From the NCBI GenBank assembly GCA_028278525.1, contig JANQEE010000017.1, forward strand, positions 66,274 to 130,273: 64,000 nucleotides of DNA, written 5' to 3'. A program made the position numbers and the translations under genes. This DNA is from Minwuiaceae bacterium (GTDB lineage: Bacteria; Pseudomonadota; Alphaproteobacteria; Minwuiales; Minwuiaceae). The notes under the pieces are model-generated. The model saw only the letters and a list, made by a program, of their open reading frames with translations, had not been told where the DNA came from and made no database searches. This document shows positions 7,809-34,599 of this stretch, in pieces. How positions within the stretch are numbered: position 1 is the first letter of the stretch; each line of letters starts with the position of its first letter.

Positions 7809-9719
7809 ATGCGACGCTTCATCCACAATGGCGCGTCCGTCTGCGCGGCGCTCATCCCTGTCCTTGCGCTTTTATGGGCGTCCGGCGCGCCGCTCTTTCT
7901 AGGCATCCTTGTCTGGACGGAGCAACTGCTGATCGCCTCAGCCACGCTCGCAATGGCGCTTTGCTTTCTGATGCGCTCGGCCAAGCGCGACGGGCGACAA
8001 GCCGAAGAGGCGCCGTGGTTTGACCGGGCCGCCGCGGTTTTCGCACTTGGCTACGGGGTCTTCCTGACCCTGCGCTTTCCCTATCTGACCGAGAACCTGT
8101 TTTACGCTCAGCAGGAGGCGCTGATCGTCGCCTCCATCGGCCTTGTACTGCTGCTTGAGACGGTGCGCCGAGCCATCGGCTGGCCGCTGATCCTCATTTT
8201 GGCGGCCATCTGCCTGTATGCCCTGTTTTCCGACCAATTGTCCGGCCCGCTGCAGTCGCGCGCTGTGAAGCCCGAAAGGCTGGTCGTCTTCGCCATCCTG
8301 GACAGCGCTTCGATGGTCGGCGCGGCATTGACCATCGCCGTGGTGGTGGTGGTTCCGTATGTCGTTTTGGCGCGCCTGCTTTTGGCCAGCGGCGGGTCGG
8401 CCGTGTTTTCAGACCTTTCCGTCAGCCTGATCGGCGGCACCCGCGGCGGGGCGGGCAAGATTGCCGTTCTGGGATCGGCTCTTTTCGGTTCGATTTCCGG
8501 CACCGCCGTCTCCAATGTGGCGTCCACGGGCGCGATTACGATCCCGCTGATGACCAAGGCCGGATACCGGCCGAAGACGGCCGCCGCGATCGAGGCTGCA
8601 TCATCCACCGGGGGGCAGCTGGTGCCGCCGATAATGGGCGCCTCGGCATTCCTGATGGCGGAGAACCTGCGCATTCCGTATTCCGAAGTCGTCATAGCCG
8701 CGCTGATCCCGTCGATCCTGTACTATGTGTCGCTGTTGGTATTCGCCGATTTCGAGGCGGCGCGGCGCAACCTCAAGCCGGTCGAAGGCGAGCGTCCTTC
8801 GGTCGCATCGGTGCTGCGGCGCGGCTGGTTCGTCCTGTTGCCTTTCGCCATTCTGATTACCGGCCTGTTCGCCTTCAACCTTCGTCCCGAGACCGCGGCC
8901 TTGGTGGCGTTGGGCGTGCTGTTCGTCATCGCCCTATACAAAACGTATGAAGGGCGCCAGCTTACGGCGCGCGACGTCGTCAAGACATTGGTGGATGCCG
9001 GCCACATCGCCGTCGACATCGTTCTCATCTGCGCCATAGCAAGCATCGTTATCGGCGTGTTCAATCTGTCCGGACTGAGCTTCGGACTCACCTTCTTTCT
9101 GGTTCAGGTCGGACAGGGATCTTTGATCCTGCTGCTCGGATTGACGGCCGTCCTGTGCATCATTTTGGGCATGGGCCTGCCCACGGTCGGCGTGTATCTG
9201 CTGCTTGCCGCCCTCGCCGCCCCGCCGTTGATAGAGCTGGGCATCGAGCCCATGGCGGCGCACCTGTTCGTTCTGTATTTCGGCATGCTGTCGATGATCA
9301 CGCCGCCGGTTGCCATTGCCGCGTTCGTCGCCGCCAACATGGCGCGCGCGCCGGCGATGCTGACAGCCGTCGAAGCGGTGCGGATCGGCTGGACCGCCTT
9401 TCTGGTGCCGATGCTGTTCGTCGCCTCGCCCGCCCTGCTGATGATGGGGTCGGGCTGGCTTGAAAGCGGGTTGGCCCTGGTCACCGCCATCTGCGGGATA
9501 GGCCTTGTAACGGCAGGGGTCGTCGGCTGGTTCCGCGTCATACTGGCGATACCCGCGCGGCTCGCCTGCATCGCCGCCGGCCTGTCGCTGTTCGTACCGC
9601 ATTCCATGGTCGACTTCGGCGTCGTGCTGAATGGCGCGGGGCTTATAGGCGGCGCGCTACTTTGGGTATTCGCGCAGAGACTGGGGAATGGCGCGGAAGC
9701 CGCGCAAGAGCGCGCCTAA
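7809..9719 (+). CDS. TRAP transporter fused permease (TAXI-associated DctQM-like)
   Basis: The 636-aa polytopic membrane protein lies immediately downstream of the TAXI solute-binding protein. Confidence 0.85.
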   Translation: MRRFIHNGASVCAALIPVLALLWASGAPLFLGILVWTEQLLIASATLAMALCFLMRSAKRDGRQAEEAPWFDRAAAVFALGYGVFLTLRFPYLTENLFYAQQEALIVASIGLVLLLETVRRAIGWPLILILAAICLYALFSDQLSGPLQSRAVKPERLVVFAILDSASMVGAALTIAVVVVVPYVVLARLLLASGGSAVFSDLSVSLIGGTRGGAGKIAVLGSALFGSISGTAVSNVASTGAITIPLMTKAGYRPKTAAAIEAASSTGGQLVPPIMGASAFLMAENLRIPYSEVVIAALIPSILYYVSLLVFADFEAARRNLKPVEGERPSVASVLRRGWFVLLPFAILITGLFAFNLRPETAALVALGVLFVIALYKTYEGRQLTARDVVKTLVDAGHIAVDIVLICAIASIVIGVFNLSGLSFGLTFFLVQVGQGSLILLLGLTAVLCIILGMGLPTVGVYLLLAALAAPPLIELGIEPMAAHLFVLYFGMLSMITPPVAIAAFVAANMARAPAMLTAVEAVRIGWTAFLVPMLFVASPALLMMGSGWLESGLALVTAICGIGLVTAGVVGWFRVILAIPARLACIAAGLSLFVPHSMVDFGVVLNGAGLIGGALLWVFAQRLGNGAEAAQERA

Positions 9720-10480
9720 GCGCCCCGGTGGCGCTCGATGCGCATCGTATACGTCAGTTGATCGGCCGGATGCCAGTTGAACGAGGCGATCATGACACCG
9801 CCCGCCGTAACGTAGCGGCGCAGCAATTGCAACGCCCATGAGTCTGCCGGCAAGCCGAGCGTGCGACTGATCTCCGGCGGCATGGCCACGGCGCGGATTT
9901 CCTGGATCACTTCGTCGATCGGCCCATCGGCATGGCGTTCAAGCAGGCTGAAGAACGGCCCGTCGTGGTTCTCCAGTTGGCCGATCACATCGGCGAACCG
10001 CAGCGGAATGAAGCTTTGGATGTGACAAACGGCCCGTCCGCCCGGACGGGTCCAGCGCACGCCGGTCACGCGAAACCACTCTTCGCCCTCACGTCCGCCT
10101 ACCCGCCGGGCCAGTTCTCCGTCGAGCGTTACCCGGGTCGTTTCGTGGAAGACGAACCAGGTCTCCACCGCCACCTGGACCAGTTCGTGCAGCGACTCGA
10201 AGGATTGGACATATTCCGCCTTCGGATCGGTAGCCACGACGCGTGTGCCGAGGCCCTGCTTACGCTTGATATAGCCGCGATCGGTCAGGTGTCGCAGGGC
10301 TTCGCGAACCGTGAACCGGCTGGTCGCGAATTCCGCCGCCAGTTCAATCTCCGTCGGCATCAACGACCCGACCGGGTATTGACCGGCCGTCAACCGTTCT
10401 TCGAGAACGCGCTGGATGCGCTGATAGCGCGGGCCCTTCTCGGCCACCATGTCACCATGATTGGAGGGTGGTGTGGACAT
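9716..10480 (-). CDS. GntR-family transcriptional regulator (HutC/UTRA subfamily)
   Basis: An N-terminal winged HTH (YQRIQRVLEERLTAGQYPVGSLMPTEIELAAEFATSRFTVREALRHL) is followed by an effector-binding domain. The start was trimmed to MSTPPSN. Confidence 0.8.
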   Translation of the reverse strand: MSTPPSNHGDMVAEKGPRYQRIQRVLEERLTAGQYPVGSLMPTEIELAAEFATSRFTVREALRHLTDRGYIKRKQGLGTRVVATDPKAEYVQSFESLHELVQVAVETWFVFHETTRVTLDGELARRVGGREGEEWFRVTGVRWTRPGGRAVCHIQSFIPLRFADVIGQLENHDGPFFSLLERHADGPIDEVIQEIRAVAMPPEISRTLGLPADSWALQLLRRYVTAGGVMIASFNWHPADQLTYTMRIERHRGA

Positions 10481-10668
10481 CGGATGCAATCTCGCTTCGC
10501 TAGATTGTCTATCGCCTGAATTGCGGTGATTTGTCCAATCATTTGTGGAAATGATCGCGTGTTTCAATCGGTTCCTGCCGCTGCGAACCGGCTTCTCGCC
10601 CAATAAACATATGGACAAATCCTCTAGAAAACGCCATAATAATCGGACATTTAGCCAGGAATTCCAGG

Positions 10669-11421
10669 GTGACGCGTTTGTCCGAGCGGCATCATTCGAC
10701 ATATGGATGGCGGGCGAAGATCGGGCTGATCGTCCCGCCGACCAACACGGTCAATGAAAGCGAGTGGCGCCTCGCGGTGCCGGATGGCGTGTCCTTTCAC
10801 ACCCACCGCATGGCGCTGCACAGCGACATTGACAGCGAGACCGGGCGGGCGCGGCTCGACAGCGACCTCGATAGCGCTTTCGCGATGCTGCTGCCGGCCG
10901 GACCGGACGTTATCGCCTATGCCTGCACGGCGGGCTCCATGGTCAAGCCGGCGGAATCCCTGCCCGACGCGCTGTCCGAGCGCCACGGGGTGAAGGCGGT
11001 GACCACATCGGCCGCCATCGTCGCCGCGCTCAGATCGCTCGGCGCCGCCCGCCTGTCGGTCGCCACGCCGTACGGCGACACGCTCAACGCCCATGAGACC
11101 TGTTTTCTGGAAGATCACGGCTTTCGCGTCGAGCGGATCATCGGGCTCGGCATCGGAGAGGGTGGGCCTTCGGAGTTTCCACTGATCGCCCAAACCGGCA
11201 TCGAGCAGGTGCACGCGCATGCCTCAGCGGCATTTGCGCCGGAAAGCGATGCGCTGGTGCTGCTGTGCACCGATTTTCCGACTCAGGCCCTGATCGGCCG
11301 ATTGGAGGCCGAGCTCGGCGTGCCGGTGGTCACCTCCAATCAGGCCACGCTGTGGGCATGCCTCCGGGCCGCCGGCCTTGACGACCGGCCCGCGGCGCTC
11401 GGCCGGCTTGCCAGGCAATGA
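10669..11421 (+). CDS. Asp/Glu/hydantoin racemase-family protein (second copy; maleate isomerase / arylmalonate decarboxylase-like)
   Basis: The motif KIGLIVPPTNTVNESE and a conserved Cys pair identify the family. It has a GTG start. Confidence 0.75.
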   Translation: MTRLSERHHSTYGWRAKIGLIVPPTNTVNESEWRLAVPDGVSFHTHRMALHSDIDSETGRARLDSDLDSAFAMLLPAGPDVIAYACTAGSMVKPAESLPDALSERHGVKAVTTSAAIVAALRSLGAARLSVATPYGDTLNAHETCFLEDHGFRVERIIGLGIGEGGPSEFPLIAQTGIEQVHAHASAAFAPESDALVLLCTDFPTQALIGRLEAELGVPVVTSNQATLWACLRAAGLDDRPAALGRLARQ

Positions 11422-11469
11422 CCAGCAACTTCAAACCACGGCGATGGCCGACAACGAGATAGAGAGAGA

Positions 11470-12330
11470 TTGATGGCTGATTCCGCACTCAAGGCTGCAC
11501 TAGCAGATGGCGATTTCGTTTTGGCGCCCGGCGTCTTCGACCTGATATCGGCCAAGATCGCCGATGGTATGGATTTCAGGGCGCTTTACGTTACGGGGTA
11601 CGGCACCGTCGCGTCCTATCTGGGTCTCCCCGATGCCGGCATCGCCACCTATCGCGACATGCTGGAGCGCATCGAACAGATCATCAAGATGACCCGGCTG
11701 CCGGTCATCGCCGATGCCGATACCGGCTATGGCGGTCTGTTGAACGTACGCCAGACCGTGCTGGGCTACGAGGCGGCGGGCGTCAGTGCGATGCAGATGG
11801 AGGACCAGGAATTCCCGAAACGTTGCGGCCACACACCGGGGCGTCGCGTCATCGCGCTGGAGGACATGGTGCGCAAGATCGAGGTGGCCGTCGACAGCCG
11901 CAAGAGCGATGACTTCCTGATCATCGCGCGCACGGATTCGCGCACCGCGCTCGGCATCGACGAGGCAATCCGCCGCGGCCAGGCATTCCGACGGGCGGGC
12001 GCCGATGTCGTGTTTATCGAAGCGCCGGAATCGGTCGAGGAAATGCGCAAGGTGCGCGAGGAGATCGAAGGGCCGCTCTTCGCCAATATGGTCAACGGCG
12101 GCAGCACGCCTTTATTGTCCGCCGCGCAACTGGCGGAGATGGGCTATCAGATCGCCATTCACCCGGCGCTCGGTTTCCTTGCAGCGGGCGCGGCGCTGGA
12201 AAAGGCCTATGGCGATCTGCTCGCCAACGGCAAGACCAGCGACGATATCGATCTCTACCCCTTCGAGGCGTTCAACAAGCTCGTCGGTTTCGAGGATGTT
12301 TGGGCGTTCGAGAAGAAGTACGCCAGTTGA
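11470..12330 (+). CDS. Isocitrate lyase/PEP mutase-family enzyme (methylisocitrate lyase / carboxyvinyl-carboxyphosphonate phosphorylmutase / oxaloacetate decarboxylase-like)
   Basis: It carries the K(R)CGH signature (EFPKRCGHTPGRRV), has a TIM-barrel layout, and is 286 aa. Confidence 0.85.
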   Translation: MMADSALKAALADGDFVLAPGVFDLISAKIADGMDFRALYVTGYGTVASYLGLPDAGIATYRDMLERIEQIIKMTRLPVIADADTGYGGLLNVRQTVLGYEAAGVSAMQMEDQEFPKRCGHTPGRRVIALEDMVRKIEVAVDSRKSDDFLIIARTDSRTALGIDEAIRRGQAFRRAGADVVFIEAPESVEEMRKVREEIEGPLFANMVNGGSTPLLSAAQLAEMGYQIAIHPALGFLAAGAALEKAYGDLLANGKTSDDIDLYPFEAFNKLVGFEDVWAFEKKYAS

Positions 12331-12353
12331 TCGCGCGTTAGCGGGCGACGGCC

Positions 12354-13037
12354 ATGGCTCAACAAGCGGGAGGAGAGGTCGTGAACGAAAGCGCGCAGGA
12401 AAACTATGCCAACGTCTACGACAACAAAGCGGGCTTCGGCAAAGCGCCAGCCTTGGTGATGGTCGATTTCGCCCATGCCTATTTCGATCCGCAATGCAGC
12501 CTGTATGCCGGCGTCGACGACGCGCTCGCATCCGCGTTACGGGTGCGCGACCATGCGCGCGCCGCCAGCGTGCCGGTGGTGTTGACGCGCGTCATCTATC
12601 AGGAAGGCGGCTTGGACGGCGGCCGCTTCTTCGAGAAGGCGAAGCCGCTCGCCGCGTTCATCGAAGGCCGGCGCACCGCGGAATTCGCGGACGGACTGGT
12701 GCCGCAGGCCGACGAATTGATCGTTACCAAGCAATATCCCAGCGCCTTTTTCGGCACCTCTCTTGCTTCGACCCTGCATGCGCGCGGCATCGACAGCGTC
12801 ATCCTTACCGGGCTGACGACCAGCGGCTGCGTGCGCGCCTCCTGCGTCGACGCCATGTCGCACGGCTTCATTACAAGCGTCGTGGCCGATGCCTGCGGCG
12901 ACCGCCACGCGGGACCGCACGAGGCCAATCTGTTCGACATGAACGCCAAATACGCCGATGTCGTCTCCGAGGCCGAGATCATCGCCTTTCTCGACCGGCT
13001 CGGCGGGCCTCTCGCCGGCGAGGCAAGGGCTTCTTGA
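12354..13037 (+). CDS. Isochorismatase-family cysteine hydrolase (maleamate/N-carbamoylsarcosine amidase-like)
   Basis: The conserved LTGLTTSGCVRAS catalytic-Cys block is present, together with a D...K...C triad layout. Confidence 0.85.
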   Translation: MAQQAGGEVVNESAQENYANVYDNKAGFGKAPALVMVDFAHAYFDPQCSLYAGVDDALASALRVRDHARAASVPVVLTRVIYQEGGLDGGRFFEKAKPLAAFIEGRRTAEFADGLVPQADELIVTKQYPSAFFGTSLASTLHARGIDSVILTGLTTSGCVRASCVDAMSHGFITSVVADACGDRHAGPHEANLFDMNAKYADVVSEAEIIAFLDRLGGPLAGEARAS

Positions 13038-13780
13038 GCGCGGCAAGCAAGCCGCGCCGGATCGCGGTAATCGGCGCGGCCGGCGGCATCGGGCGCGCCG
13101 TGGTGCAATCGCTTGCCGGTGGCGGCCATCGCGTCATCGCGCTCGACCTGCCCGCATCGCTCGAGCGTCATTCCCTCGACGTGCCGACAATCCCCATCGA
13201 CGTGCTGTCGGCGGACGCGGTCGACACGGCGGCGGCCGCGCTTGCCGGCACAGATGAGCCATTGGACGGGCTGGTCAATCTGGCCGGCTATACGCGCGGC
13301 GTCATGCCGCTCGCCGATACCGGGACAGAGGCTTTCGACGATACGGTCGCCGGCAATCTGCGCGGCATGTTTCTGGCGACCAAGGCGCTGCTGCCCTCGA
13401 TGGCGCAGGACGCCTCCATTGTGATGGTCTCTTCCGGCCTGGCGCAATTCATCCGGCCGGGGCACGGCGCCTATGCCGCGTCGAAGGCGGGCGTGATCGC
13501 GCTTGCCAAGACCTTCGCGCTCGAATGCGCGCCGAAAATAAGGGTCAACGCGGTTGCGCCCGGCCCGGTTCAAACCGCATTCCTGACCGGCGGCACAGGG
13601 CGGTCGGACGAGGGCGAGGCAAGCCTGGTAGAGGTCGAGCAGTTTGCCGCCGCCGTGCCGATGGGCCGAATTGCCCAGCCTGAAGACATCGTCGGCCCGA
13701 TCGAATTCCTGCTTGGGCCGCAAAGCGGATTCATGACGGGCCAGGTTTTGTGGGTCAATGGCGGCGCCTACATGCCTTGA
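13034..13780 (+). CDS. SDR-family oxidoreductase
   Basis: It has the VIGAAGGIGRAV motif and a YAASK catalytic motif. A TTG start overlaps the stop of the upstream gene (cTTGA), indicating translational coupling. Confidence 0.75.
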   Translation: MSAASKPRRIAVIGAAGGIGRAVVQSLAGGGHRVIALDLPASLERHSLDVPTIPIDVLSADAVDTAAAALAGTDEPLDGLVNLAGYTRGVMPLADTGTEAFDDTVAGNLRGMFLATKALLPSMAQDASIVMVSSGLAQFIRPGHGAYAASKAGVIALAKTFALECAPKIRVNAVAPGPVQTAFLTGGTGRSDEGEASLVEVEQFAAAVPMGRIAQPEDIVGPIEFLLGPQSGFMTGQVLWVNGGAYMP

Positions 13781-14323
13781 CGGGCTTGTCCGTGCAGCGT
13801 CGCCGATTAGGGTGGCTTGTATGAAGTTTTAGGATTCGTCCGTGCGGGCCGGCGAGAAGGTTTTGCGATAGCCCCAATTGGTGTAAAGCTTCGGGGGCTC
13901 AAGAATCCCCGCTTCAAGAGTGGATTGACCTATCGGGCTATTTCTTTGTGCAAGCGGTCGCTCGATATGCAGCCGATGCCGTCACCAAAGAAACCCTTAG
14001 TCCAACAAATTGTGTAATTGATAGGCAGGCGCGAGCACGGCAAAATCTTGCCAAAATTGGCTGGCATAATGGACCTTCGATTGTTGTTGGGACAAATCCA
14101 GACAGTGACGCTCCGCAAATCGAACCATTGGCATCGAAACCTAGCAATGAAATCGAAAACGCGACCCATGCCATGAGGGACGGAAGCTATGTTCCACGCC
14201 CCCGAGGCGAGGCCGAAAGGAATGCGTATGCAATAGGCGTCTAGCTAGCTTAAGCGGTGCCGCTCGCAGCGAGCCCTGGCGATCGGCATCGAATCGACGC
14301 CGCGAGGGAGCAAGGGAGTACGA

Positions 14324-14533
14324 GTGGACAATTTCAACGACGGCTTGTCACATAAATCCCAGAAGGAACTACAGACCCAATACGGTCCGCTGAAAGGCCA
14401 CGAGTGGCTTGAACTCGACAATTGGGCCTTTCAGGAACTGCCAAAGTCGGCCTACAAGCTGCTTCGGAAGATCTATCGGCATCACAAAGTGCCGATAGCT
14501 AAATGGCTCAAGCAGTCGCCTCGGCGCACCTGA
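14324..14533 (+). CDS. Hypothetical small protein in a low-GC spacer
   Basis: The 69-aa ORF has a protein-like composition and lies in a roughly 900-bp AT-richer stretch. No homology was recognised. Confidence 0.25.
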   Translation: MDNFNDGLSHKSQKELQTQYGPLKGHEWLELDNWAFQELPKSAYKLLRKIYRHHKVPIAKWLKQSPRRT

Positions 14534-14686
14534 TCTTCCATTGCATGGCTAGGTGGCCGCTCGGAGTCCCGCCGCGAGGCCTACACCCGTAGCCCAACGA
14601 CGGCGTTCGCCGCCGATAAGGCAGCCTTTCCGGGCCACTGGCCATTCGGCCGGTCAACGAACGCCGTCTATCGGTTCCATCCGGGA

Positions 14687-15931
14687 CTAGAACCTTGGCA
14701 CATCGAACCGAACCGGCAGTGACAGAATAACGGCGTATTCGGGGCCGTCATCGGTCAAACCGACCACGCCGGCAAGATCGAGCAATACGCCACGGCCAAG
14801 CACCGACGATGCACCGATGGTAAAGGAACCAACAGTCCGATCCGAGCCGTCAACCTTGTCACCGTCGACTTCAGCCTCTTGCGAAAACTGCTGATCAAAG
14901 AAAAACCGCAAGGATGTGGATGGGCTGGCGGCCAGGACGGCACCAAGCGAGAAAGCAAGCTCGTCGCCCGGTTCGATATCGTCCTCTTCGAAGGTACTCT
15001 CGTACAAAAAGCTGGCAACGAATGCGAGAGGATCCTGTCTTTTGACCGCCGTCAACGACCCCCTGATCTCGTTGAAACCCGCGCCGAGCGCAACACCGTC
15101 GTCGAACCTTTCGCCGGTGTCGGAATCCCACGTAATTCTCCCGACAAGATCGGGCCACCACCGGTCTTCACGCAGTAAAGCCTTGGCCAGCCCGATGCGA
15201 AAATCGCCGAACCCCGAGCCGAATCCGCTTTCTTCGTCGCGTGCGCCGAAAACCACGCTTGTTACCGCCGATTGATCGACGAAATTGTACGGCAGGCCGA
15301 CCTCGAACTGGGCGTCCCAAGGCAAGCCGAGACGCAATTCCAGTTCGGCCTCGAATTCATTGCGGCGAACGTTCCGTTCCGCAAGAAACGTCGTAGCGCC
15401 CTCCGTGAAGAAAACCGGCGCATCGTTCTCTCTTCTCGTATAGCTGAAGCTGGGTTCTATTTGCGCTTTTCCGAACGGCAGCAAAAGAGCGCCCTCTTGC
15501 ACGAGCGTACGCTCCAACGCGCGGTCGATCGCGTCCTCGTCAATTTCGAACTCGCCGGGCGCCGGTTGTGGCGCTTGGTCGGTTACGGGCTCCGACGCCG
15601 CGGTCCGATAATTTGGAGATTGGATAATATCGGGGACGGCCGCACGCGAGGCGGGGGCGCCATTGAATGCCGCCGTTGCCAGGTCCGTTGCGTTGGGCGA
15701 GGCGCTTCCAGCCATCGCCCGCTCGAGCTGTTGCACGCGCTGTATGAGGTCCAAGATGACCGCGTCGCGGTCTTCGAGCAGCTCCTGCAGATGTTGGATG
15801 GTCGGCTCTTCGTCGGCTGCGTATGCAGCCGCCGGAACGAATACAGATGCCGACAACGCGCAAAGACAAGCCAGCATCCTGTTTACCGAGTAGACACTCG
15901 TCCGGGTCGGCAGTTTATTCATGTCCCCCAC
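14687..15931 (-). CDS. FapF-like outer-membrane beta-barrel secretion channel (signal peptide, periplasmic coiled coil, Ala/Pro linker, barrel with C-terminal Phe)
   Basis: The N-terminus (MNKLPTRTSVYSVNRMLACLCALSASVFVPAAAYAADE) is a signal peptide, followed by a heptad coiled coil (IQHLQELLEDRDAVILDLIQRVQQLERAMAG), then a low-complexity A/P/S linker. After that come alternating amphipathic beta-strands ending in ...VRFDVPRF. The probable true start is the ATG at 15922. Confidence 0.6.
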   Translation of the reverse strand: MGDMNKLPTRTSVYSVNRMLACLCALSASVFVPAAAYAADEEPTIQHLQELLEDRDAVILDLIQRVQQLERAMAGSASPNATDLATAAFNGAPASRAAVPDIIQSPNYRTAASEPVTDQAPQPAPGEFEIDEDAIDRALERTLVQEGALLLPFGKAQIEPSFSYTRRENDAPVFFTEGATTFLAERNVRRNEFEAELELRLGLPWDAQFEVGLPYNFVDQSAVTSVVFGARDEESGFGSGFGDFRIGLAKALLREDRWWPDLVGRITWDSDTGERFDDGVALGAGFNEIRGSLTAVKRQDPLAFVASFLYESTFEEDDIEPGDELAFSLGAVLAASPSTSLRFFFDQQFSQEAEVDGDKVDGSDRTVGSFTIGASSVLGRGVLLDLAGVVGLTDDGPEYAVILSLPVRFDVPRF

Positions 15932-15961
15932 CCCATCTTTTTCGAAAGGCCATGCCTTGGC

Positions 15962-16645
15962 TCAGCGAAGCATGACGAAGTCCTCGGGTCGGGGGGCGAG
16001 CCTGTTGGGAAGTACGGTACCGTCGCGTCGCGCGACCACGAACCCTACCCTTCCGACCTGCGGATACTTTATCCAGGAACTTTCGAACTTGCCCGCGAGC
16101 ATCGTGCGATTGCCGAACGCCGGGTCGGCCAAGAGGACCCGATTGCCGCGCATCCCCCGGAACACCACGAAATGGTTGTATCCGTCGAAATTGACGGGAA
16201 CCATTATCGGCGCACGCTGCTTCAGGTCGTCCAGAGTCAGGCTCCCGTAACCGATCCCTTCGTAGCCTCGGTCGTCGACATATTTCTTCAAGTCAAGCAG
16301 CGAGAAACCATGACGCAACCGAAGCAGACGGGGATTTGCGATGTATTCCTCGCGACTGATCAGCCCCGAGGCGACCTCTTTCTCGGATACAGGGTCGCCA
16401 TGCTGATAGTTGAGGATGGTAGCGAGAGCGGCCGCTCCGCAGCTTAGATCCCACTTCTGAACGACCACCCGGTCTTGGCGGATTTCGAGAAAGGAACGGA
16501 CGGGCTTCGACCCTTCGGCAAGTGCAGCAAAACACGGCGATATGCCGACCAGAATCGTAGCAATGAAAACACGTAACCGAACGTTGATGCGTCCGGTAGC
16601 TCGCCGGGCGTCGGCCCGGCGGCGGGTCTCATTTTGGCTCGACAT
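15962..16645 (-). CDS. Standalone peptidase C39-like cysteine peptidase (FapD-like), secreted
   Basis: The C39 catalytic block WDLSCGAAALATILNYQHG is present, with a signal peptide-like N-terminus (RVFIATILVGISPCFAALA). The start was trimmed to MSSQNE (ATG complement at 16643-16645). It ends 31 bp upstream of the outer-membrane protein gene. Confidence 0.7.
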   Translation of the reverse strand: MSSQNETRRRADARRATGRINVRLRVFIATILVGISPCFAALAEGSKPVRSFLEIRQDRVVVQKWDLSCGAAALATILNYQHGDPVSEKEVASGLISREEYIANPRLLRLRHGFSLLDLKKYVDDRGYEGIGYGSLTLDDLKQRAPIMVPVNFDGYNHFVVFRGMRGNRVLLADPAFGNRTMLAGKFESSWIKYPQVGRVGFVVARRDGTVLPNRLAPRPEDFVMLR

Positions 16646-16834
16646 GGGCCCATCCCCTGTTAGACCGAATCGAGTACTCCAGGTTGACCTTAGCCCAACA
16701 GCACATCCATTGAACGTAAAATCGACGCTTGGGACAACCGCTACTACGCTGCGCCACAATCGGAAATCGATGCGGCTTCAGCGGTAAACGGACCCGTTGA
16801 AGCCCGATCTGTCGAACTCTTTGCCTCTGTGGAG

Positions 16835-16921
16835 GATGACACAGTCAAACTGCGAATAGCGAGATAACTAATCAACATATCACCCGTTTGGGGGACCTGC
16901 GGACCGTCAGACTGTGTCATT
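16835..16921. promoter_or_regulatory. Inverted repeat (gatgacacagtc ... gactgtgtcat) in the divergent promoter region between the C39 peptidase gene and the LuxR-type regulator
   Basis: The 11/12-nt arms lie at 16835-16846 and 16910-16921 within the 300-bp intergenic region. Confidence 0.4.
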
Positions 16922-16947
16922 CTTGGAATTGGGGGTAGCAAGGTCGA

Positions 16948-17658
16948 ATGACTACCACGATTGCGCTGATCGACGAGAGAACACTCACCCGCCAATGCTT
17001 GGCCCGTTGGCTGGAACGCAGCAGCAAGGATTTCAAGATCATCGCAGTTGGAAGACTGGCCGAGCTTGACCAGCGATATGAGCAAAATGAGGACCCTCAT
17101 CTGGTGCTGCTCAGCGTCGGCCACCTGACGGTGACGGACGATGAGGTGCGATCGTCGCTCAAGCAAGTGACCGACCGATTGCCTGACGTGCCTATTATTG
17201 TCCTTTCCGATTCTGAAGACCCTACCGCAGTAGCAGAAGCGATACGCAACGGCGTCAAAGGCTACATTCCAACAACACTCGATTTATCCGTTGCCCTGGA
17301 AGCGCTGCGGCTGGTCCAGGTGGGCGGCACATATGTACCGGCCAGCACTTTCCTTACGGCGCTGGAAAGTCGGGCGCCGGCTTGTCAGCACCAGGAGCCG
17401 CGGCCTGGCGAGCCGCACTCGCTGAAAGGGTTCACACCACGCGAGTTGCAGGTCCTGGAGCTACTTCGAGAGGGCAAGCCGAACAAGATCATCGCCTACG
17501 ACCTGAACATGCAGGAAAGCACCGTGAAAGTTCACGTTCGACACATCATGAAAAAGCTTAAAGCGAGCAATCGTACCCAGGCGGCGTTTCTGGCGCAGCA
17601 GCTGGTGGAAGCGGAACGAGAATACGGGTTGGTGGAGGAGTCCATTCTTACGCACTGA
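16948..17658 (+). CDS. LuxR/FixJ-family response regulator (receiver-like domain plus LuxR HTH)
   Basis: The C-terminal LTPRELQVLELLREGKPNKIIAYDLNMQESTVKVHVRHIMKKL is an HTH_LuxR domain. The N-terminal region is a receiver-like fold. No cognate kinase is adjacent. Confidence 0.8.
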   Translation: MTTTIALIDERTLTRQCLARWLERSSKDFKIIAVGRLAELDQRYEQNEDPHLVLLSVGHLTVTDDEVRSSLKQVTDRLPDVPIIVLSDSEDPTAVAEAIRNGVKGYIPTTLDLSVALEALRLVQVGGTYVPASTFLTALESRAPACQHQEPRPGEPHSLKGFTPRELQVLELLREGKPNKIIAYDLNMQESTVKVHVRHIMKKLKASNRTQAAFLAQQLVEAEREYGLVEESILTH

Positions 17659-18413: not shown

Positions 18414-20699
18414 ATGGACGATCCGCCCGAAACGCCGTCAGCGCATACCAGAGACGCCGAAGGCGCAATGTCCCTGTATCGATCGGGTCGCCTGGCGGAC
18501 GCCGAGCAGGCGTACAGGCATCTACTCGACCAGGACGCGGACAACGCGGACAGTCTGCATATGTTGGGCGTAATAGCCTGGCGGCGCGGAGCGGCAGACG
18601 ACGCGAAGTCGCTGATCGAGCAGGCCTTGCGACAAGAGCCGCAAAATGCGCGCTATTACAATAGCCGCGGCATTGTCCTGGCGAACCAAGGGCAACTGGA
18701 GGATGCCCTAAGCTGCTTCGAACAGGCTATCGGTTTAGATTCCGATCTCGTCGAGGCGCACAACAACTACGGCAACGTTCTCAAGTCGCTCGGGCGACTG
18801 GAAGCGGCTTTGGTTGCCTACGATACAGCGATTGAGTCTCGCCCCGGCTATGCCGAGGCGCATTGCAACCGCGGCGGTGTTCTCGAAGCCCTAAGCCGGC
18901 CCGACGACGCGCTGGCGGCTTACGATGAAGCCGTTCGCATCGATCCCCGTTCCGCGAGCGCGCACAACGGTCGAGGCAACGTTCTGGTTGGTCGGGACAA
19001 TCTGAAAGCTGCCTTGGTTGCCTACGACACAACGATCGAGCTTCGTCCGGAAGGCGCGAAAGCCCACTACAATCGCGGCAATGTCCTGAAAGCACTGGGA
19101 CGCTTCGCCGAGGCATTGACCGCCTACGATCGTTCGCTCCGCATCGATGGCGAATTCATCGATGCACAAAACAACTACGGCACCGTTCTCGAATCTCTGG
19201 ATCGGCCCGACGAGGCGCTGGCCGCCTATGATCGGGCGATCCGCATCGATCCCAATTGCGCCAAGGCGCACAACAATCGAGGCAACATATTGAGGGATCA
19301 AGGACGGCTGAAGGACGCCCTGGCGGCATTCGAAACGTCGATTCAGTTGGATCCGGATTCGGCGATCGCCCACAACAATCTCGGCACCCTGCTGAAGGAC
19401 CAAGGCCGCCTCGACGCCGCCTTGGCCCACTTTGAGAAGGCCATCCGCATCGATCCGAATTCGTCGAAACCGCACAGCAACTATCTGATGTGCCTGACGT
19501 GCGATCCCGAACAGGATGACGACGCACTGTTTCAGGCCCACAAGAGATGGGGTGAACGGCATGGCCGTCCGCACGGCGCCTTCACTTGTTACGAGAATTC
19601 CAGGACCGTGAACAAGACGTTGCGCGTCGGTCTGGTCTCCGAGGAATTTGGGCGGACCCCGACCGGCTGGTTCCTGGAATCCGTCCTCTGCGAATTGAAC
19701 GATAAAACTGTCCAGGCCATTTGCTATTCGGACCGTCTGCTAGAGGACGCTTTGACCGACCGTCTGCGGTCCTGTGCTTTCGCTTGGCATTCGACCAGTA
19801 CGCTGACGGATGCAAAGCTCGCTGAATCAATCCGCGCCGATGGGATCGACATCCTGATCGATCTTTCCGGTCACGCCGGCGGCAATCGCCTGGGCTGTTT
19901 TGCCCTGAAACCCGCGCCTGTCCAGGTAAGCTGGATCGGTTACCATGAGACAACCGGACTTCCTGCCATGGATTACATACTGATGGATCCGGTGGTCGTT
20001 CCGATAGGCGCAGAGCGCTGGTTCACGGAGACGGTGGTTCGGTTGCCGCATAGCCGGTTCTGTTACACGCCGCCGGAATATTCGCCTGTCGTCGTTGACC
20101 CGCCGGCCATCGCCAATGGGCACATGACCTTCGGCAGCTTCAACAATCTGGCGAAAGTCAACCCGGAGGTCATTCGCGTTTGGGCGCGCATCCTGACGGA
20201 GGTTCCCGGTTCCAGGTTAATTCTGAAGTGGACGACACTGGACGATTCGGAAGAATGCAAACGGATGGAGAATGCATTCGCCGACTTTGGGATCGAGTCG
20301 GACAGGATCGACATGCGCGGACGGTCGCGCCACCACAGGCTGTTGGCCGAGTACGGCGACGTCGATATCGCTTTGGATCCGTTTCCCTATTGCGGCGGCC
20401 TGACAAGCTGCGAGGCGTTGTGGATGGGCGTTCCGATCGTCACGCTGCCGCACACGCGACCCGTATCGCGCATGACGACGGCCTTCCTGACAGCCATGCA
20501 GAAAACCGAATGGATCGCCGAAAGTACTGCCGACTACATTCGCATCGCGACCGAGCTCGCGAGCGATTTGGATGGCTTGACCGTCCAAAGGTGCGAACAA
20601 CGCGAGAGCATGAGAGTGTCCCCATTGTGCGACGGAGCGCGAGCGGCGCGCGATCTAGAGGCCGCCTTGCGCCTTATGTGGCGTAGATGGTGCGCGTAA
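18414..20699 (+). CDS. TPR-repeat protein with C-terminal O-GlcNAc transferase-like (GT41/SPINDLY-type) domain
   Basis: About ten 34-aa TPR units (AxxxYxxAIxxxP pattern) are followed by a roughly 350-aa glycosyltransferase 41-like C-terminus. The gene is 761 aa. Confidence 0.8.
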   Translation: MDDPPETPSAHTRDAEGAMSLYRSGRLADAEQAYRHLLDQDADNADSLHMLGVIAWRRGAADDAKSLIEQALRQEPQNARYYNSRGIVLANQGQLEDALSCFEQAIGLDSDLVEAHNNYGNVLKSLGRLEAALVAYDTAIESRPGYAEAHCNRGGVLEALSRPDDALAAYDEAVRIDPRSASAHNGRGNVLVGRDNLKAALVAYDTTIELRPEGAKAHYNRGNVLKALGRFAEALTAYDRSLRIDGEFIDAQNNYGTVLESLDRPDEALAAYDRAIRIDPNCAKAHNNRGNILRDQGRLKDALAAFETSIQLDPDSAIAHNNLGTLLKDQGRLDAALAHFEKAIRIDPNSSKPHSNYLMCLTCDPEQDDDALFQAHKRWGERHGRPHGAFTCYENSRTVNKTLRVGLVSEEFGRTPTGWFLESVLCELNDKTVQAICYSDRLLEDALTDRLRSCAFAWHSTSTLTDAKLAESIRADGIDILIDLSGHAGGNRLGCFALKPAPVQVSWIGYHETTGLPAMDYILMDPVVVPIGAERWFTETVVRLPHSRFCYTPPEYSPVVVDPPAIANGHMTFGSFNNLAKVNPEVIRVWARILTEVPGSRLILKWTTLDDSEECKRMENAFADFGIESDRIDMRGRSRHHRLLAEYGDVDIALDPFPYCGGLTSCEALWMGVPIVTLPHTRPVSRMTTAFLTAMQKTEWIAESTADYIRIATELASDLDGLTVQRCEQRESMRVSPLCDGARAARDLEAALRLMWRRWCA

Positions 20700-20783: not shown

Positions 20784-21125
20784 TCAGCCCGAACCGACGC
20801 GATTGTCGTCGTGCGCAGGTAGCCAAACGTCCGCCGCAGCTCTGTGTGCCTGCCGAGCCGACTTGGCATAGATCCGAGCCTGAAAGACGTTGTCGATATC
20901 GGCGCCGCCGAAACGGTCGATCAGCTTTTCAATGAACAACGGGAAGGTCGCGTGGAGAACATCCACATCCTGCATATCTTCATGGAGCTGATCCAGTAAC
21001 TCCGCCAGCGCGTTCAGCCGCGACGGCCAGGAGCGATGACGGAGCGGCTCGTAGACGCGTTCGACCAACTCGTCGGCCAAGCGCTCCGGCGTTACGGGCA
21101 ATGGGCTATGGGGTTTCACACGCAT
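20784..21125 (-). CDS. Hypothetical protein
   Basis: The 113-aa ORF has a balanced composition. The opposite-strand ORF is Arg-rich and likely spurious. Confidence 0.3.
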   Translation of the reverse strand: MRVKPHSPLPVTPERLADELVERVYEPLRHRSWPSRLNALAELLDQLHEDMQDVDVLHATFPLFIEKLIDRFGGADIDNVFQARIYAKSARQAHRAAADVWLPAHDDNRVGSG

Positions 21126-21152
21126 TTTGCAGACCTGATTTAAGGCGCACGA

Positions 21153-21449
21153 TCATCGAGACGTCGACGCATGGGCTTTGGCGCGCGCGCTTTGTCGCGA
21201 AACGGAAAGATATACGGACGCCTTGCCGCCGCGTGAACTCGCGGAAGCCCTTGCCGTCGCCCGGCCTTGCATGTCGGTCAATGTTTCAGACAGATAAAGG
21301 TCTCCGCCAATGACTGTTCGTTCGTGGACAATCGGGCGTCGGTCAGGGGCTGACCCCTCATCCGCAAATACCGGTTCCCCACCGGCCGTGGAGACGAAAC
21401 CGACCGCGGCACAAACCATGACGGCAACGCGGACAACCATTGCGCTCAT
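21153..21449 (-). CDS. Hypothetical small secreted protein
   Basis: A signal peptide (MSAMVVRVAVMVCAAVGFVSTAGGEP) is present. It shows weak resemblance to the EP...LTD.Q N-motif of the small-protein family. Confidence 0.3.
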   Translation of the reverse strand: MSAMVVRVAVMVCAAVGFVSTAGGEPVFADEGSAPDRRPIVHERTVIGGDLYLSETLTDMQGRATARASASSRGGKASVYLSVSRQSARAKAHASTSR

Positions 21450-21821
21450 GACCTTCGACGTTGAAATCCACCAATCCGATAACGTCGGCATAACCAACCA
21501 TGGCTGACGTCAAAGGATTAAAGTCTGGCGCCGGAACCTGGCCAAGCTGTCAATAGGTCGTAGCATTGCGGGCATGGGCCATCGTTGCTTCGGAAGACCG
21601 GGCAACGAAGCCCCCTTTTTGACGATTTGGCGTCGCCGTCTACAGCCATGGTTGTAGGCGCGGATCTGACCTCCCCAATTCGTCGCACCGATCACCGCCG
21701 AACGGCGGGCCAACCTTTTGGGTGGTTGTCCGGTGTCTCTACCAACACGCACACTCGATACACTGGCGCTGACGCCTCGCGCGGGCGCCGGTCGACAGAA
21801 CAATCGGAGGAGTGTTCGAAC

Positions 21822-23490: not shown

Positions 23491-23924
23491 CCGGGCCTCG
23501 CGTCTTCTTCGCCTGTGCGATCGCCTCCGGCATCAGACTGCCCGGGGGTTTGTCGCCAAGACATGCGGGGGCACTAACCGTTAGTTTAAGTCCGGCCCCC
23601 CGCCCCCGGCCTACTTGACAATTTGAGGTACGTCTTTCGTTCGGCAGCATGGCCACCGGACGAACCCGACGAGTCACTTTGATATCTTCGTAGGACCGCC
23701 TATTGGCTGCACGCGGCCGAACCGGCGGCAGCAAATTGCGTCTACCACCGTGGCGGTAGACGCGGACCGGAACTCAGCATTTCGTCGCACCGGTCACCGT
23801 CGAACGGCGGGCCAACCTTTTGGGCGGTTGTCCGTCATCTGCACCCACACGCAAACTCAATCCACTGGTGCCGACGCTCGGCGCGGGCGCCGGTTGACAG
23901 ACCCAATTGGAGGAGTGCTCGAAC

Positions 23925-24414: not shown

Positions 24415-25716
24415 TTAGCGGCCGACGTCGACCGCGCCGTCGGACGGCAATTTCGTGGGGTAATCTCCGAACACCTTGCCGGCGGGCTCGGCGGGCCGGT
24501 CAGCCAGTGTGGCTTCTCCGTAGGTTCGATAATAGTACGCCACGGTCTCGAGCAGCGTGTCATAGAGCGAAATCCGGGGCGTCCATCCCAATAGTTCCCT
24601 GGCCTTCGCCAGCACCGGCATCCGACGATCACAGTCTTCATAGCCCTCGCCATAGAAGTCCCGCGACGAAACCGACACGATCGGATGGGAGAGGTAGGAC
24701 GGGTCGCCGGTCACTTCGGCATAGACCAGCCGCATCAACTCCGCCAGCTCTGCCATCGTGACCTCATTCTCGCGGTTTCCGATATTGAAGATCTGGTTCG
24801 CCGCCCGATCCGGCTTTTGCAACATCAGCACGACCGCGGCAATGGCGTCGTGGATGGACACGATGGTGCGTCGCGCCGCACCGCCATCGACCAATTGCAG
24901 GGGCGACCGGTCCAACAGGGCTGTCATAAAGCAGGCGAGAACCCGCGGTATGCCCTCGCCGTCCCGGCCGGGAATGAAATCCATCTTCGGCCCAAAGAAG
25001 TTGAGCGGGCGAACGATCGTATATGGCAGGCCGCGTTCCCTGTGGTGCGCATAGATGAAGCGCTCCAACATCTGTTTCGCGCAGGCGTAGCTCCAGCGTT
25101 GGTTCTGGATGGGTCCCATGATCAACGGCGTTGCGGTTTCTTCCAGCTCGAATAGATCCGGATTCGAATAGTCGGGCGCCGGCAGATAGCTCGAAACCGT
25201 GCGCCCGTAGACCTCGCTGGTGGAGAAATGAATCAGCCACGTGCCGTGATGCGAACAGAGCTCGACCAGGCGATAGACGTCCAGGAAATTGGATTTGATC
25301 ACTTCCAGCGGGTTCGTGTTGTACTGCGACGGATTGCAAATGGCAGCCAGGTTGATGACCGCATCCGCCCACCTGACCGCTTCAATTAGTCCCGCGGGAA
25401 TCCGCGTATCGCTGAACGCTTCCCGATGGAACGTGAATTTCGGATTGGCCAGATGCGCGGCGATCTTCTCGTCATGCAGATCCCAGCCTTCGATCCGGAT
25501 CGCCCCTTGATCCAGAAGCCTGTCCAGAAGGTGGCTGCCGATAAAGCCACCGCATCCCAGGACAACCAAGTTCCGGACAGGTGGGAGGGAACGACGACCG
25601 TTGCCGACCCGCAAAGAGTGTTGCTCGACGCCATTTCGGCCATTGGCTGGAGGCCCATCTTGAGCCGACTTCCTTGTTCGTTTCCCGTCGCTTCGAAGCT
25701 CGGACTTGGCAGCCAT
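24415..25716 (-). CDS. NAD-dependent epimerase/dehydratase (UDP-glucuronate decarboxylase / ArnA C-domain-like)
   Basis: It has the LGCGGFIGSHL Rossmann motif and a YACAKQMLER (YxxxK) catalytic motif. The gene is 433 aa. Confidence 0.8.
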   Translation of the reverse strand: MAAKSELRSDGKRTRKSAQDGPPANGRNGVEQHSLRVGNGRRSLPPVRNLVVLGCGGFIGSHLLDRLLDQGAIRIEGWDLHDEKIAAHLANPKFTFHREAFSDTRIPAGLIEAVRWADAVINLAAICNPSQYNTNPLEVIKSNFLDVYRLVELCSHHGTWLIHFSTSEVYGRTVSSYLPAPDYSNPDLFELEETATPLIMGPIQNQRWSYACAKQMLERFIYAHHRERGLPYTIVRPLNFFGPKMDFIPGRDGEGIPRVLACFMTALLDRSPLQLVDGGAARRTIVSIHDAIAAVVLMLQKPDRAANQIFNIGNRENEVTMAELAELMRLVYAEVTGDPSYLSHPIVSVSSRDFYGEGYEDCDRRMPVLAKARELLGWTPRISLYDTLLETVAYYYRTYGEATLADRPAEPAGKVFGDYPTKLPSDGAVDVGR

Positions 25717-26272
25717 GGTCCCACTCCCGTCTTGTTTTCGTTACACACCGCGTCACGCAGGTCATTCGCCGTAACGGCCATCTCCTGCCGCTCACCCTCG
25801 CCTCTGGGTTGCGCATGCGCGCGGCCGGCCACGCGCCTGAACGGCCTCGAACAATTCAAGCCGCATGACAATCGCCCGGCTAGAAGCCAATCCGATGTAG
25901 GCGAGCGCTCGAAAGAGGTAGAGCAGCCCGGGTAAGCACCGGGCCGGACAATGCCGAACCGGCGCGCGTCGGCACGCCGCGCCCGCCGTTGTTCTTCGTT
26001 CGGTCGTTTTGCCGGTAAGAGAACCGAGAACGCCCGCGTGTCGGATGTACGAACGCGGCCCGGCCTCGATCACCGATCAATTTACCTACCTCCAAATCGG
26101 TAGGAAGGAGCAAATTGATGAACGTTTGGACAGCGCTTAATGCCAAAGGCGAATTGTCACCCCGCGAGAACGCAAGCAAAATTCCAAGAAGTCTTTTTGT
26201 CTTGGTGGTTTATGACGTTGCTTGTACGTACGGCATTCGTGCGGCCGAGCGCATATCGGGGAGGGTGGACCT

Positions 26273-33861: not shown

Positions 33862-34599
33862 TTACGCACTACATCTACGCAACGGCCGGCGAACGATCAA
33901 CGCCAACCCCACAAAGCCGAGGCCTAGCAGAAAAAGCGCAGTGGGTGCGGGAACGGCCTTGGCCATGCCAAGCAGTTGAAGCGCCAAGTCGACGGTTTTC
34001 GTCTCACCAGGGTCGAGAGAGAAGGAATCGAAGCCGGTGAAACCGTCTTCAATTGCGTCGTTGCCCGAGACCCAAGCATCCAAATCGAAGATCGGTTCGT
34101 CATCCACACTGAGCAGAAAGTGTACATCCGCTTTGGCCATCTCGTATTGAGGCGGCGCGTCGATCGACGTCGCCAGAACAACGAACAGATCGACAAGAAA
34201 GTCCAGTTCCAAGGGGTCCGCCGAGACGTTGGACAAATCGAACGACGCCTGCCCGTCGGCCAGAACGCTTGACATGCCGGGCTTATCCGCGGTGCCAAAC
34301 GCCTGGTGCGTCGCGACCAGAAACTGACCTGCAGCATTCGCGTCGACGTCGGAATCCAAGAACGCAATGGCATTGCCGGACGTGGTCGGTGACTGGATAA
34401 GGGAGGTCGTGGGATTACTGACGATCAGCCCATCGTCTTCAGTAAGGACAGCGAAGGCAAAGGCCGCTTCGCCGAAAAAAATAGCGGTCGCTTCCGCGCG
34501 GCTAGCAAATCCAGCTGTCGCAGCGACAATTAGTGTGAAAGCCGCCAAACCTCTTGTTGCCCGGGACGCGGTCACATGCAATGCACGATCGATCTTCAT
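33862..34599 (-). CDS. PEP-CTERM (VPAP variant) sorting-domain secreted protein
   Basis: It has an N-terminal signal peptide. The C-terminus VPAPTALFLLGLGFVGLALIVRRPLRR has the pattern of a PEP-CTERM motif, TM helix and Arg cluster. Confidence 0.65.
   Translation of the reverse strand: MKIDRALHVTASRATRGLAAFTLIVAATAGFASRAEATAIFFGEAAFAFAVLTEDDGLIVSNPTTSLIQSPTTSGNAIAFLDSDVDANAAGQFLVATHQAFGTADKPGMSSVLADGQASFDLSNVSADPLELDFLVDLFVVLATSIDAPPQYEMAKADVHFLLSVDDEPIFDLDAWVSGNDAIEDGFTGFDSFSLDPGETKTVDLALQLLGMAKAVPAPTALFLLGLGFVGLALIVRRPLRRCSA

Follow-up and report, generated by a model that had tools for sequence, protein, structure and literature searches.

The genes considered here lie on the minus strand of a 64,000-nucleotide stretch of DNA from a Minwuiaceae bacterium (contig JANQEE010000017.1; the whole stretch is called the window below). 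They encode a secreted C39 cysteine peptidase and an outer-membrane channel, are co-directional and together fill positions 14687-16645. We think, with a probability of roughly 0.7, that the two form the core of a two-step secretion module of the FapD/FapF type, known from the Fap amyloid system, in which they are responsible for processing and export, and that this module serves its own cargo. This reading is carried by the homology and architecture of both proteins, by the conservation of the catalytic residues, and by a leader motif in small secreted proteins, its position behind the signal peptide and its linkage to the pair. An initial annotation of the window had already described a Fap-like module with different cargo at this place, and both open reading frames (ORFs) were found where it had put them.

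Architecture of the channel and the peptidase

The channel protein comprises 411 amino acids counted from its ATG. Its AlphaFold model, which was built on 49 homologs and has a mean predicted local distance difference test (pLDDT) value of 80.9, contains a signal helix (residues 13-26), a second helix (42-72), a disordered segment (75-116), a further helix (129-142) and a beta-barrel (152-407), and the chain ends in ...VPRF. This is the architecture of FapF, which consists of a signal peptide, a coiled coil with the motif R-h-x-x-h-E, a disordered linker, a plug helix and a 12-strand barrel. The initial annotation had given the order as signal peptide, heptad coiled coil, Ala/Pro-rich linker and Phe-ending barrel, and this order is seen in the model and the sequence, with Ala and Pro making up 37.5% of the linker residues 73-128. 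The barrel is divided by DSSP into 14 strand segments, of which two pairs lie only two or three residues apart, consistent with about 12 strands.

When the model was compared to the PDB with Foldseek, the places 1-18 were all taken by FapF chains, with 5o67_A as the best match (E 2.8e-16, target-normalised template modelling score 0.81, 20% identity), followed by the COG4313 channel 4rl8 (E 3.8e-12). The sequence searches agree with this ranking, as the four FapF sequences are the only significant PDB matches (E about 1.5e-3) and FapF (NF058560) is the sole NCBIfam match, with 33 bits and an E-value of 2.7e-8 that involve the C-terminal part only. No Pfam family was matched at E 0.1 or below. 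An unrelated porin or transporter family without a coiled coil, which had been named as the outcome that would speak against a FapF-like protein, thus did not score better.

The helix 42-72 has a heptad pattern with I42, L45, L49, R52, I56, L59, V63, L66 and M70 at the a/d positions, and the nearly invariant R52 occupies a core position of the coiled coil. The segment R62-V-Q-Q-L66-E67 is invariant in 49 of 49 channel homologs. Rouse and colleagues described R-h-x-x-h-E as a trimerisation motif that is conserved in the FapF coiled coil (PMC6173795), and on the basis of its sequence R62-V-Q-Q-L66-E67 is to be regarded as this FapF-type motif. The channel is probably a trimer. The linker is conserved neither in sequence nor in length, and the homologs range from about 370 to 930 amino acids.

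The ORF of the peptidase spans 15962-16759, and because a start at the ATG at 16645 yields 227 amino acids, which is the length of the Minwuiales ortholog, this ATG was taken as the likely start. The protein begins with a basic and hydrophobic signal segment, includes WDLSCGAAALATIL and has no ABC-transporter part. It matches Peptidase_C39 (PF03412) with 51.4 bits against a Pfam cut-off of 22 (E 1.3e-13). An alignment of 70 family members shows Gln63, Cys69, His158 and Asp174 to be conserved to 95% or more. The closest solved structure, the double-glycine protease domain LahT150 (6mpz; E 1.1e-5), has the same residues at the corresponding places. The description as a secreted standalone C39 peptidase with a catalytic Cys/His pair therefore stands. 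The best named NCBIfam models are FilB with 100.7 bits and then FapD with 87.8 bits, and the periplasmic peptidase NapP of Neisseria is 34% identical over 151 amino acids.

Leader-bearing small proteins and the spread of the family

In unrelated genomes, small ORFs to which no family is assigned adjoin the pair. Their alignment shows that they share a hydrophobic signal peptide with an AxA-type end, which is followed by EPxxL[TS]xxQMDxVTA[G/A]. A leader profile was built from these aligned segments and searched against about 21,900 six-frame ORFs, which resulted in matches to 181 ORFs in 70 of 85 sources, with 1 to 7 per locus and at a median distance of 2 kb from the channel gene. A hydrophobic signal segment with a median length of 24 amino acids precedes the leader in 177 of the 181, and a control with the reversed sequences of the same ORFs gave no leader-profile match of 12 bits or more. 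The window has exactly three leader-bearing ORFs, here named P1, P2 and P3, all within 9 kb of the pair. The small secreted paralogs mentioned in the initial annotation are this cargo, and they bear the conserved double-glycine-type leader.

The consensus of double-glycine leaders is LSxxELxxIxGG (PMC1538908), and the motif matches it in register, with Leu for Leu at position -12, Thr/Ser for Ser at -11, Gln for Glu at -8, Met for Leu at -7, Val for Ile at -4 and Gly for Gly at -1. At position -2, Ala is found instead of Gly, so that the leader ends in a pair of small residues before the mature domain. In the AlphaFold model of P3 the leader is a short helix (residues 31-37) of low confidence. 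The leader-cargo peptide EPVKLTDGQMDRITAAGGVTFD is a candidate substrate of the peptidase.

A homolog search with the single sequence of P3 gave only 4 matches because of the word index, whereas a profile of the locus-derived cargo gave 218 from the global protein database. Among the 120 of these 218 proteins that were listed, 118 have the leader with at least 12 bits, ending at about residues 35-44, and it is visible in P0232 as the 119th. Only P0124 of the cyanobacterium Leptothoe spongobia deviates. It has no Sec signal and reads ...MIISDLNYMETVATDVQGAG and then GVTFNSNIDKDV... instead. Its ...DVQGAG followed by GVTFN aligns with ...QMDRITAAG followed by GVTFDTDINV... of P3, with the boundary at the same place. 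The conservation of the mature domain thus starts exactly past the small-residue pair under two different leaders, as would be expected of a propeptide boundary. P0124 (L085, 10001-10417) itself represents a P2/P3-type mature domain behind a classical, Sec-less GG leader, and no C39 transporter was found within 10 kb in its locus.

The mature parts of the cargo have a median length of 81 amino acids (10th to 90th percentile 56-116) and are composed of 15% Ala, 11% Ser, 11% Gly, 10% Thr and 8% Val. They are neutral or anionic in 81% of the cargo, and 54 of 178 contain exactly two Cys. P1, P2 and P3 have net charges of -10, -18 and -17 and mature lengths of 77-94 amino acids. In P2 and P3 an alternating stretch (VDIDKDVDIDVDADV) precedes a conserved tail, AEASADAFG...TDAFAQTTS...SFSFALAATD, for which a hairpin is predicted. 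Scans of P1 and P2 against Pfam and NCBIfam, and of P0124 against Pfam, found no family.

The channel belongs to a large separate lineage that has no curated model and extends across the Alpha-, Beta- and Gammaproteobacteria. At least 516 relatives were matched in a word-indexed search in which no more than 8000 candidates were scored. When a full profile was run against 1.84 billion representatives, 607 clusters reached E 1e-30 or better and 2242 reached E 1e-3 or better. Among species-representative genomes 170 relatives were detected, and 80 of these loci were kept. Carriers are Geminicoccaceae, Defluviicoccus, Porphyrobacter, Caulobacter and Pelagibius among the Alphaproteobacteria, Nitrosomonas, Nitrosospira, Sulfuriferula and Noviherbaspirillum among the Betaproteobacteria, and Nitrococcus, Methylobacter, Methylotetracoccus, Lamprobacter and Thiocapsa among the Gammaproteobacteria. 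The alphaproteobacterial context that had been emphasized before is therefore correct for the window but too narrow for the family. The closest named relative of the window is a metagenome-assembled genome (MAG) of the Minwuiales, which has the same gene order and a channel that is 75% identical.

The linkage of the components was counted in 83 related loci, and for the peptidase in the 77 loci that have at least 900 bp upstream. A C39 peptidase is encoded in 72 of these 77, and in 65 its gene immediately precedes the channel gene, with both on one strand. Leader-bearing small ORFs are present in 68 of the 83 loci, so that the recurrence of the pair with such proteins, which had been proposed for a survey of related genomes, is indeed found. 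A LuxR-type regulator is encoded nearby in 41 of the 83.

Proposed route, related systems and alternative explanations

The route that we propose follows the experimentally supported parts of the Fap system, namely a periplasmic FapD, whose catalytic Cys is required for the secretion of FapC, and FapF as a trimeric gated pore (PMC5557850). The small pre-pro-proteins P1, P2 and P3 would be taken across the inner membrane by Sec, after which signal peptidase would cleave off the signal peptide and expose a roughly 16-residue N-terminal leader, EPxxL[TS]xxQMDxVTA[G/A]. The periplasmic C39 peptidase would then recognize this double-glycine-type leader as its substrate and cut past the small-residue pair. 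The unfolded mature protein (about 55-115 amino acids, rich in Ala, Ser, Gly, Thr and Val, and mostly acidic) would exit via the plug-gated barrel of the channel, a coiled-coil protein that probably forms trimers. Expression may be governed by the LuxR-type regulator with a dead receiver domain, and in some lineages, including that of the window, a TPR-GT41 glycosyltransferase probably modifies the cargo before it leaves the cell. The cargo could be subunits of surface or matrix fibres, a preference that we hold only weakly.

Several points weigh against this proposal. Cleavage, secretion and trimerisation are all inferred for this family, and in Fap a cleavage of the linker of FapF itself has been proposed (PMC5557850). 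Since position -2 of the leader is Ala rather than Gly, and since some leaders have TAAG instead of TAG, the bond that is cut can be placed only approximately. Built on 80 sequences, the AlphaFold model of P3 has a pLDDT of 52.4 and no beta-solenoid, so that a fibre or an amyloid lacks structural support. Five of the 77 loci are without a peptidase within the flank examined, and the TPR-GT41 glycosyltransferase occurs in only 10 of the 83.

The closest characterized relative is the Fap system (PDB 5o65, 5o67, 5o68; PMC5557850, PMC6173795). Both systems have a standalone periplasmic C39 peptidase with a Sec signal, a channel with signal peptide, trimerisation-motif coiled coil, disordered linker, plug helix and 12-strand-type barrel, adjoining genes for these two proteins, and several Sec-exported secreted subunits. 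The differences concern the degree of relationship and the cargo. The barrel of the window is only about 20% identical to FapF, and the scores remain far below the equivalog cut-offs, with 33 bits against at least 700 for FapF (NF058560) and 87.8 against at least 330 for FapD (NF058616). The cargo has a uniform double-glycine-type leader right after the signal peptide, whereas Fap proteins reportedly have no canonical C39 site, and it is without Asn/Gln-rich repeats. The partners in the window are a LuxR-type pseudo-receiver regulator and a GT41 glycosyltransferase, and, as the initial annotation had stated, no FapA, FapB, FapC or FapE is evident near the pair: none was matched by NCBIfam models at E 0.1 or below in the eight neighbouring proteins that were scanned out of the ORFs of the window.

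Some genomes contain a second peptidase/barrel pair that scores closer to Fap (L033, 11201-15217; L039; L011). The one in L033 is located a few kilobases off and scores 129.7 bits with FapD and 146.8 bits with FapF, and its barrel also matches FilC. Next to these second pairs, proteins with a signal peptide are encoded whose mature chain has DELDKLRGG, VELAALSGG or SDLATLCGG after about 35-45 residues. At these loci we also noted three signal-peptide proteins that share a C-terminal G-I/L-x-S-V-I-Q-N-S/N, two of which have GG-type sites (DELDKLRGG, EELDNARG). The second pairs look like an intermediate Fap-like lineage beside the family of the window, and both are parallel lineages of one superfamily. 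A double-glycine-type site in the secreted partners seems to be general for periplasmic C39/FapF-like pairs, in line with a processing of FapE that has been suspected in the literature (PMC5557850).

The idea of such a module is less unprecedented than the initial annotation had assumed, because a similar locus was already proposed in Neisseria. In the nap island, described in 2025, the C39 peptidase NapP and the FapF homolog NapF were proposed as processing and secretion route for the GG peptides NapA-C (PMC11798529). The locus of the window has the same composition of C39 peptidase, FapF homolog and small GG-motif peptides, and both systems have a putative regulator. In contrast to the acidic window cargo of 77-94 amino acids, Nap peptides are short, cationic and alpha-helical, with predicted mature lengths of 16-36 amino acids, and they have no obvious Sec signal. 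The nap island is also narrowly distributed, as opposed to the 607 clusters of the window channel family. The similarity between NapF of the gonococcal strain FA1090 and the window channel is marginal, in a comparison that involves a short allele and a machine-read supplement text.

The Acinetobacter Fil "putative pilus" (FilB NF050078, FilC NF050079) is related as well, as the window peptidase scores higher with FilB than with any other named model and FilC is FapF-related, given that the Fap-like barrel of L033 matches both models. The FilB score of the peptidase is nevertheless far from the cut-off of 475, and the channel has no FilC match (cut-off 630). No functional study of the Fil system was found in the open-access text that was searched. 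With the peptidase-containing ABC transporters (PCATs) that act on double-glycine leaders, as represented by LahT150, the window system shares the peptidase fold, the catalytic residues and a leader in register with the consensus. It differs in that the peptidase is periplasmic and unfused to an ABC transporter, and in that the leader follows a Sec signal peptide and has Ala at -2, while PCAT leaders form the N-terminus of a cytoplasmic precursor.

Among the alternatives, the one that we take most seriously, although we consider it unlikely, keeps the same machinery and regards the cargo as diffusible bioactive peptides, such as microcin-like toxins, autolysis peptides or signals comparable to NapA-C, rather than structural subunits. 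The double-glycine leaders that C39 peptidases process belong classically to bacteriocins and signalling peptides (PMC1538908, PMC5557850), the nap island joins the same two machinery proteins to small GG peptides (PMC11798529), and the cargo is small, multi-copy and very diverse between genomes, with exactly two Cys in almost a third of the proteins. The charge of the mature parts, however, is mostly neutral or anionic and strongly negative for all three window proteins, while Naps and microcins are cationic (PMC11798529). Moreover, no immunity-like gene is evident, the mature parts of 55-115 amino acids have few hydrophobic helices, and a cargo-adjacent glycosyltransferase and up to 7 leader ORFs per locus look more like structural subunits. 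Still less probable to us is a leader that remains uncleaved and serves as targeting or chaperoning tag for the channel, for example by binding the periplasmic coiled coil, with a peptidase that cuts the channel linker or another component. Rouse et al. proposed a possible cleavage of the FapF linker or of FapE by FapD and a coiled coil that recruits substrates (PMC5557850), and the channel has a long disordered linker. This linker is unconserved in sequence and length, though, whereas the leader fits the C39 recognition consensus position by position (PMC1538908) and the mature domain begins exactly past the small-residue pair even under a different leader.

The locus could also be a genuine fap amyloid operon that has diverged so far that P1-P3 can no longer be recognised as orthologs of FapB, FapC and FapE. 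In favour of this are the common core architecture, the number of three secreted subunits, as in Fap, and the second pairs that score closer to Fap and adjoin the family in some genomes. The distance to the equivalog cut-offs, the missing FapA/B/C/E matches in the eight proteins scanned and a cargo without Asn/Gln-rich imperfect repeats make this very improbable, and since the genomes of L033 and L039 hold both systems, the two are paralogous lineages. The same scores and the lack of Fap subunit matches nearby agree with the earlier view of a Fap-like module with different cargo. Finally, many homologs have a precomputed PF13557 match or the name "Putative MetA-pathway of phenol degradation", and together with the second-best structural match to 4rl8 this could indicate an uptake channel of the COG4313/PF13557 type for hydrophobic small molecules, for which the adjacent peptidase would have no meaning. 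We give this almost no credence, as the window channel does not match PF13557 within the Pfam search described above, FapF ranks above 4rl8, the coiled coil with its trimerisation motif is invariant, and the channel has a peptidase partner and leader-bearing cargo in most loci. The preferred reading thus remains a FapD/FapF-type module that processes and exports leader-bearing cargo.

Gene neighbourhood and wider meaning

Features of the secretion locus and its neighbourhood, in window coordinates
Feature	Position	Strand	Remarks
FapF-like outer-membrane channel	14687..15922	-	signal peptide; coiled coil (42-72) carrying R-h-x-x-h-E; disordered linker; plug helix (129-142); barrel of roughly 12 strands; Phe at C-terminus
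Secreted standalone C39 cysteine peptidase	15962..16645	-	Gln63, Cys69, His158, Asp174; 30 bp upstream of channel gene
Divergent intergenic region between peptidase and regulator genes	16646..16947		302 bp; 53% GC
LuxR/GerE-type regulator with pseudo-receiver domain	16948..17658	+	Ser56 at phospho-acceptor position
Cargo P1	17958..18374	+	signal peptide, leader EPLRLTLSQMESVTAG, 94-aa acidic, Ser/Thr-rich mature part
Cytoplasmic TPR + GT41 glycosyltransferase	18414..20699	+	40 bp downstream of P1
Cargo P2	21822..22178	+	signal peptide, leader EPIKLTDNQMDKVTAAG, very acidic mature part of 78 aa (net charge -18)
380-aa protein between P2 and P3	22348..23490	-	Minwuiales ortholog has PF13640 (2OG-Fe(II) oxygenase)
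Cargo P3	23925..24278	+	paralog of P2; duplication 82% identical, starting at inverted repeat

The regulator gene is divergent from the pair, as described in the initial annotation. Its product has a GerE helix-turn-helix domain (71.1 bits), and its receiver domain stays below the Pfam threshold (25.9 against 30.2). At the phospho-acceptor position, 21 of 42 family members have Ser and 15 Asn, and Asp never occurs, so that the protein is, as far as the sequence can tell, a conserved pseudo-receiver. The duplication that includes P2 and P3 (21637-22268 and 23739-24367) comprises 638 bp, including about 185 bp upstream of each gene. An inverted repeat, possibly a regulator site, marks the start of each copy; it reads CGTCTACC-N8-GGTAGACG at 23739-23762 and differs from this by one mismatch at 21637-21660. 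An operator common to the regions in front of the three cargo genes and the peptidase gene was looked for and rejected, as only P2 and P3 share sequence, through the duplication. A 10-mer that precedes P3 recurs as its reverse complement, GGACAACCGC, at 16732-16741 in the peptidase region, with a similar distance to the start codon, and a single common 10-mer of this kind is about what chance would give.

In most of the other nine loci that have one, the TPR-GT41 gene is located directly 3' of a cargo gene, and in L009 and L011 it lies between the cargo genes and the peptidase gene, and we regard its product as a candidate cargo-modifying enzyme. P0124 is encoded next to a 1336-aa TPR-GT41-GT2 protein, and its locus also has a JmjC-type oxygenase, an RTX protein and sugar-nucleotide enzymes. 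As the company of glycosyltransferase, oxygenase, sugar-nucleotide and RTX genes repeats, the cargo may be modified and is probably glycosylated. The oxygenase-like gene that separates P2 from P3 may belong to the system. Also near the cargo genes are an NAD-dependent epimerase/dehydratase (24415-25716, minus strand) and an RTX calcium-binding repeat protein (26222-27565, plus strand), and a type I secretion ABC transporter without C39 domain is encoded together with an HlyD partner at 27674-30765 (plus strand).

Between the GT41 gene and P2 there are two small ORFs of 113 and 114 amino acids (20784-21497, minus strand), both of which have conserved counterparts in the MAG of the Minwuiales (E 2e-49 and 7e-33). 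The 114-aa ORF (21153-21497, minus strand) has a hydrophobic N-terminus and was examined as a fourth cargo because of its "...ERTVIGG", but it was rejected for want of a match to the leader profile. Downstream of the channel gene, the low-GC spacer of the initial annotation has a lower GC content indeed (51-58% at 13800-14600), but the difference to the flanking genes (about 60-70%) is only modest, and the stretch holds a conserved ORF. This basic 69-aa ORF without signal peptide (14324-14533, plus strand) is 88% identical to its counterpart in the Minwuiales MAG (L001:9016-9225), where the channel is only 75% identical. On the far side of the channel gene, a metabolic block at 9716-13780 (GntR regulator, Amdase-like protein, phosphoenolpyruvate mutase/isocitrate lyase family, isochorismatase, SDR) has the gene order of the Minwuiales MAG and appears to be unrelated to the secretion module. 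A 245-aa protein at 33862-34599 (minus strand) has a weak C-terminal PEP-CTERM motif match (E 0.0054) below the Pfam cut-off.

While the general idea has precedent in Fap, Fil and nap, the separate lineage, the uniform bipartite signal, the larger acidic or Ala/Ser/Gly/Thr-rich cargo and the conserved partners, a pseudo-receiver LuxR regulator and a GT41 glycosyltransferase, are new. No description of this family was found in the open-access literature, which was searched for the Fil system, FapF-like proteins, periplasmic C39 peptidases and FapD cleavage after 2019. The wider proposition is that a widespread, distinct two-step pathway exists in proteobacteria, in which a Sec signal peptide and a 16-residue double-glycine-type leader form a bipartite signal that is read by a periplasmic C39 peptidase as the entry to a FapF-type trimeric pore, and here we would put the odds at about even.

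If true, this pathway would supply the missing recognition rule for periplasmic C39 peptidases such as FapD, NapP and FilB. FapD is essential for the secretion of the Fap amyloid, and yet the literature searched gives neither its substrate nor its recognition sequence (PMC5557850). The Nap model likewise leaves unexplained how the peptides reach the periplasm (PMC11798529), whereas the bipartite signal of the present family explains the crossing of the inner membrane. With its Sec signal, its explicit and strongly conserved leader of the C39 type and the close linkage of peptidase and pore, the family is a clean case, and as its cultured carriers include nitrifiers, methanotrophs, purple sulfur bacteria, Caulobacter and Porphyrobacter, the rule is directly testable. 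The pathway would also be the source of a large class of small, acidic surface or matrix proteins, as yet unannotated and possibly glycosylated, and it would give a function to hundreds of small proteins that are now "hypothetical" and to outer-membrane proteins labelled "MetA-pathway of phenol degradation". Beyond this, the bipartite signal could provide a simple tag for the export of small proteins from Gram-negative cells.

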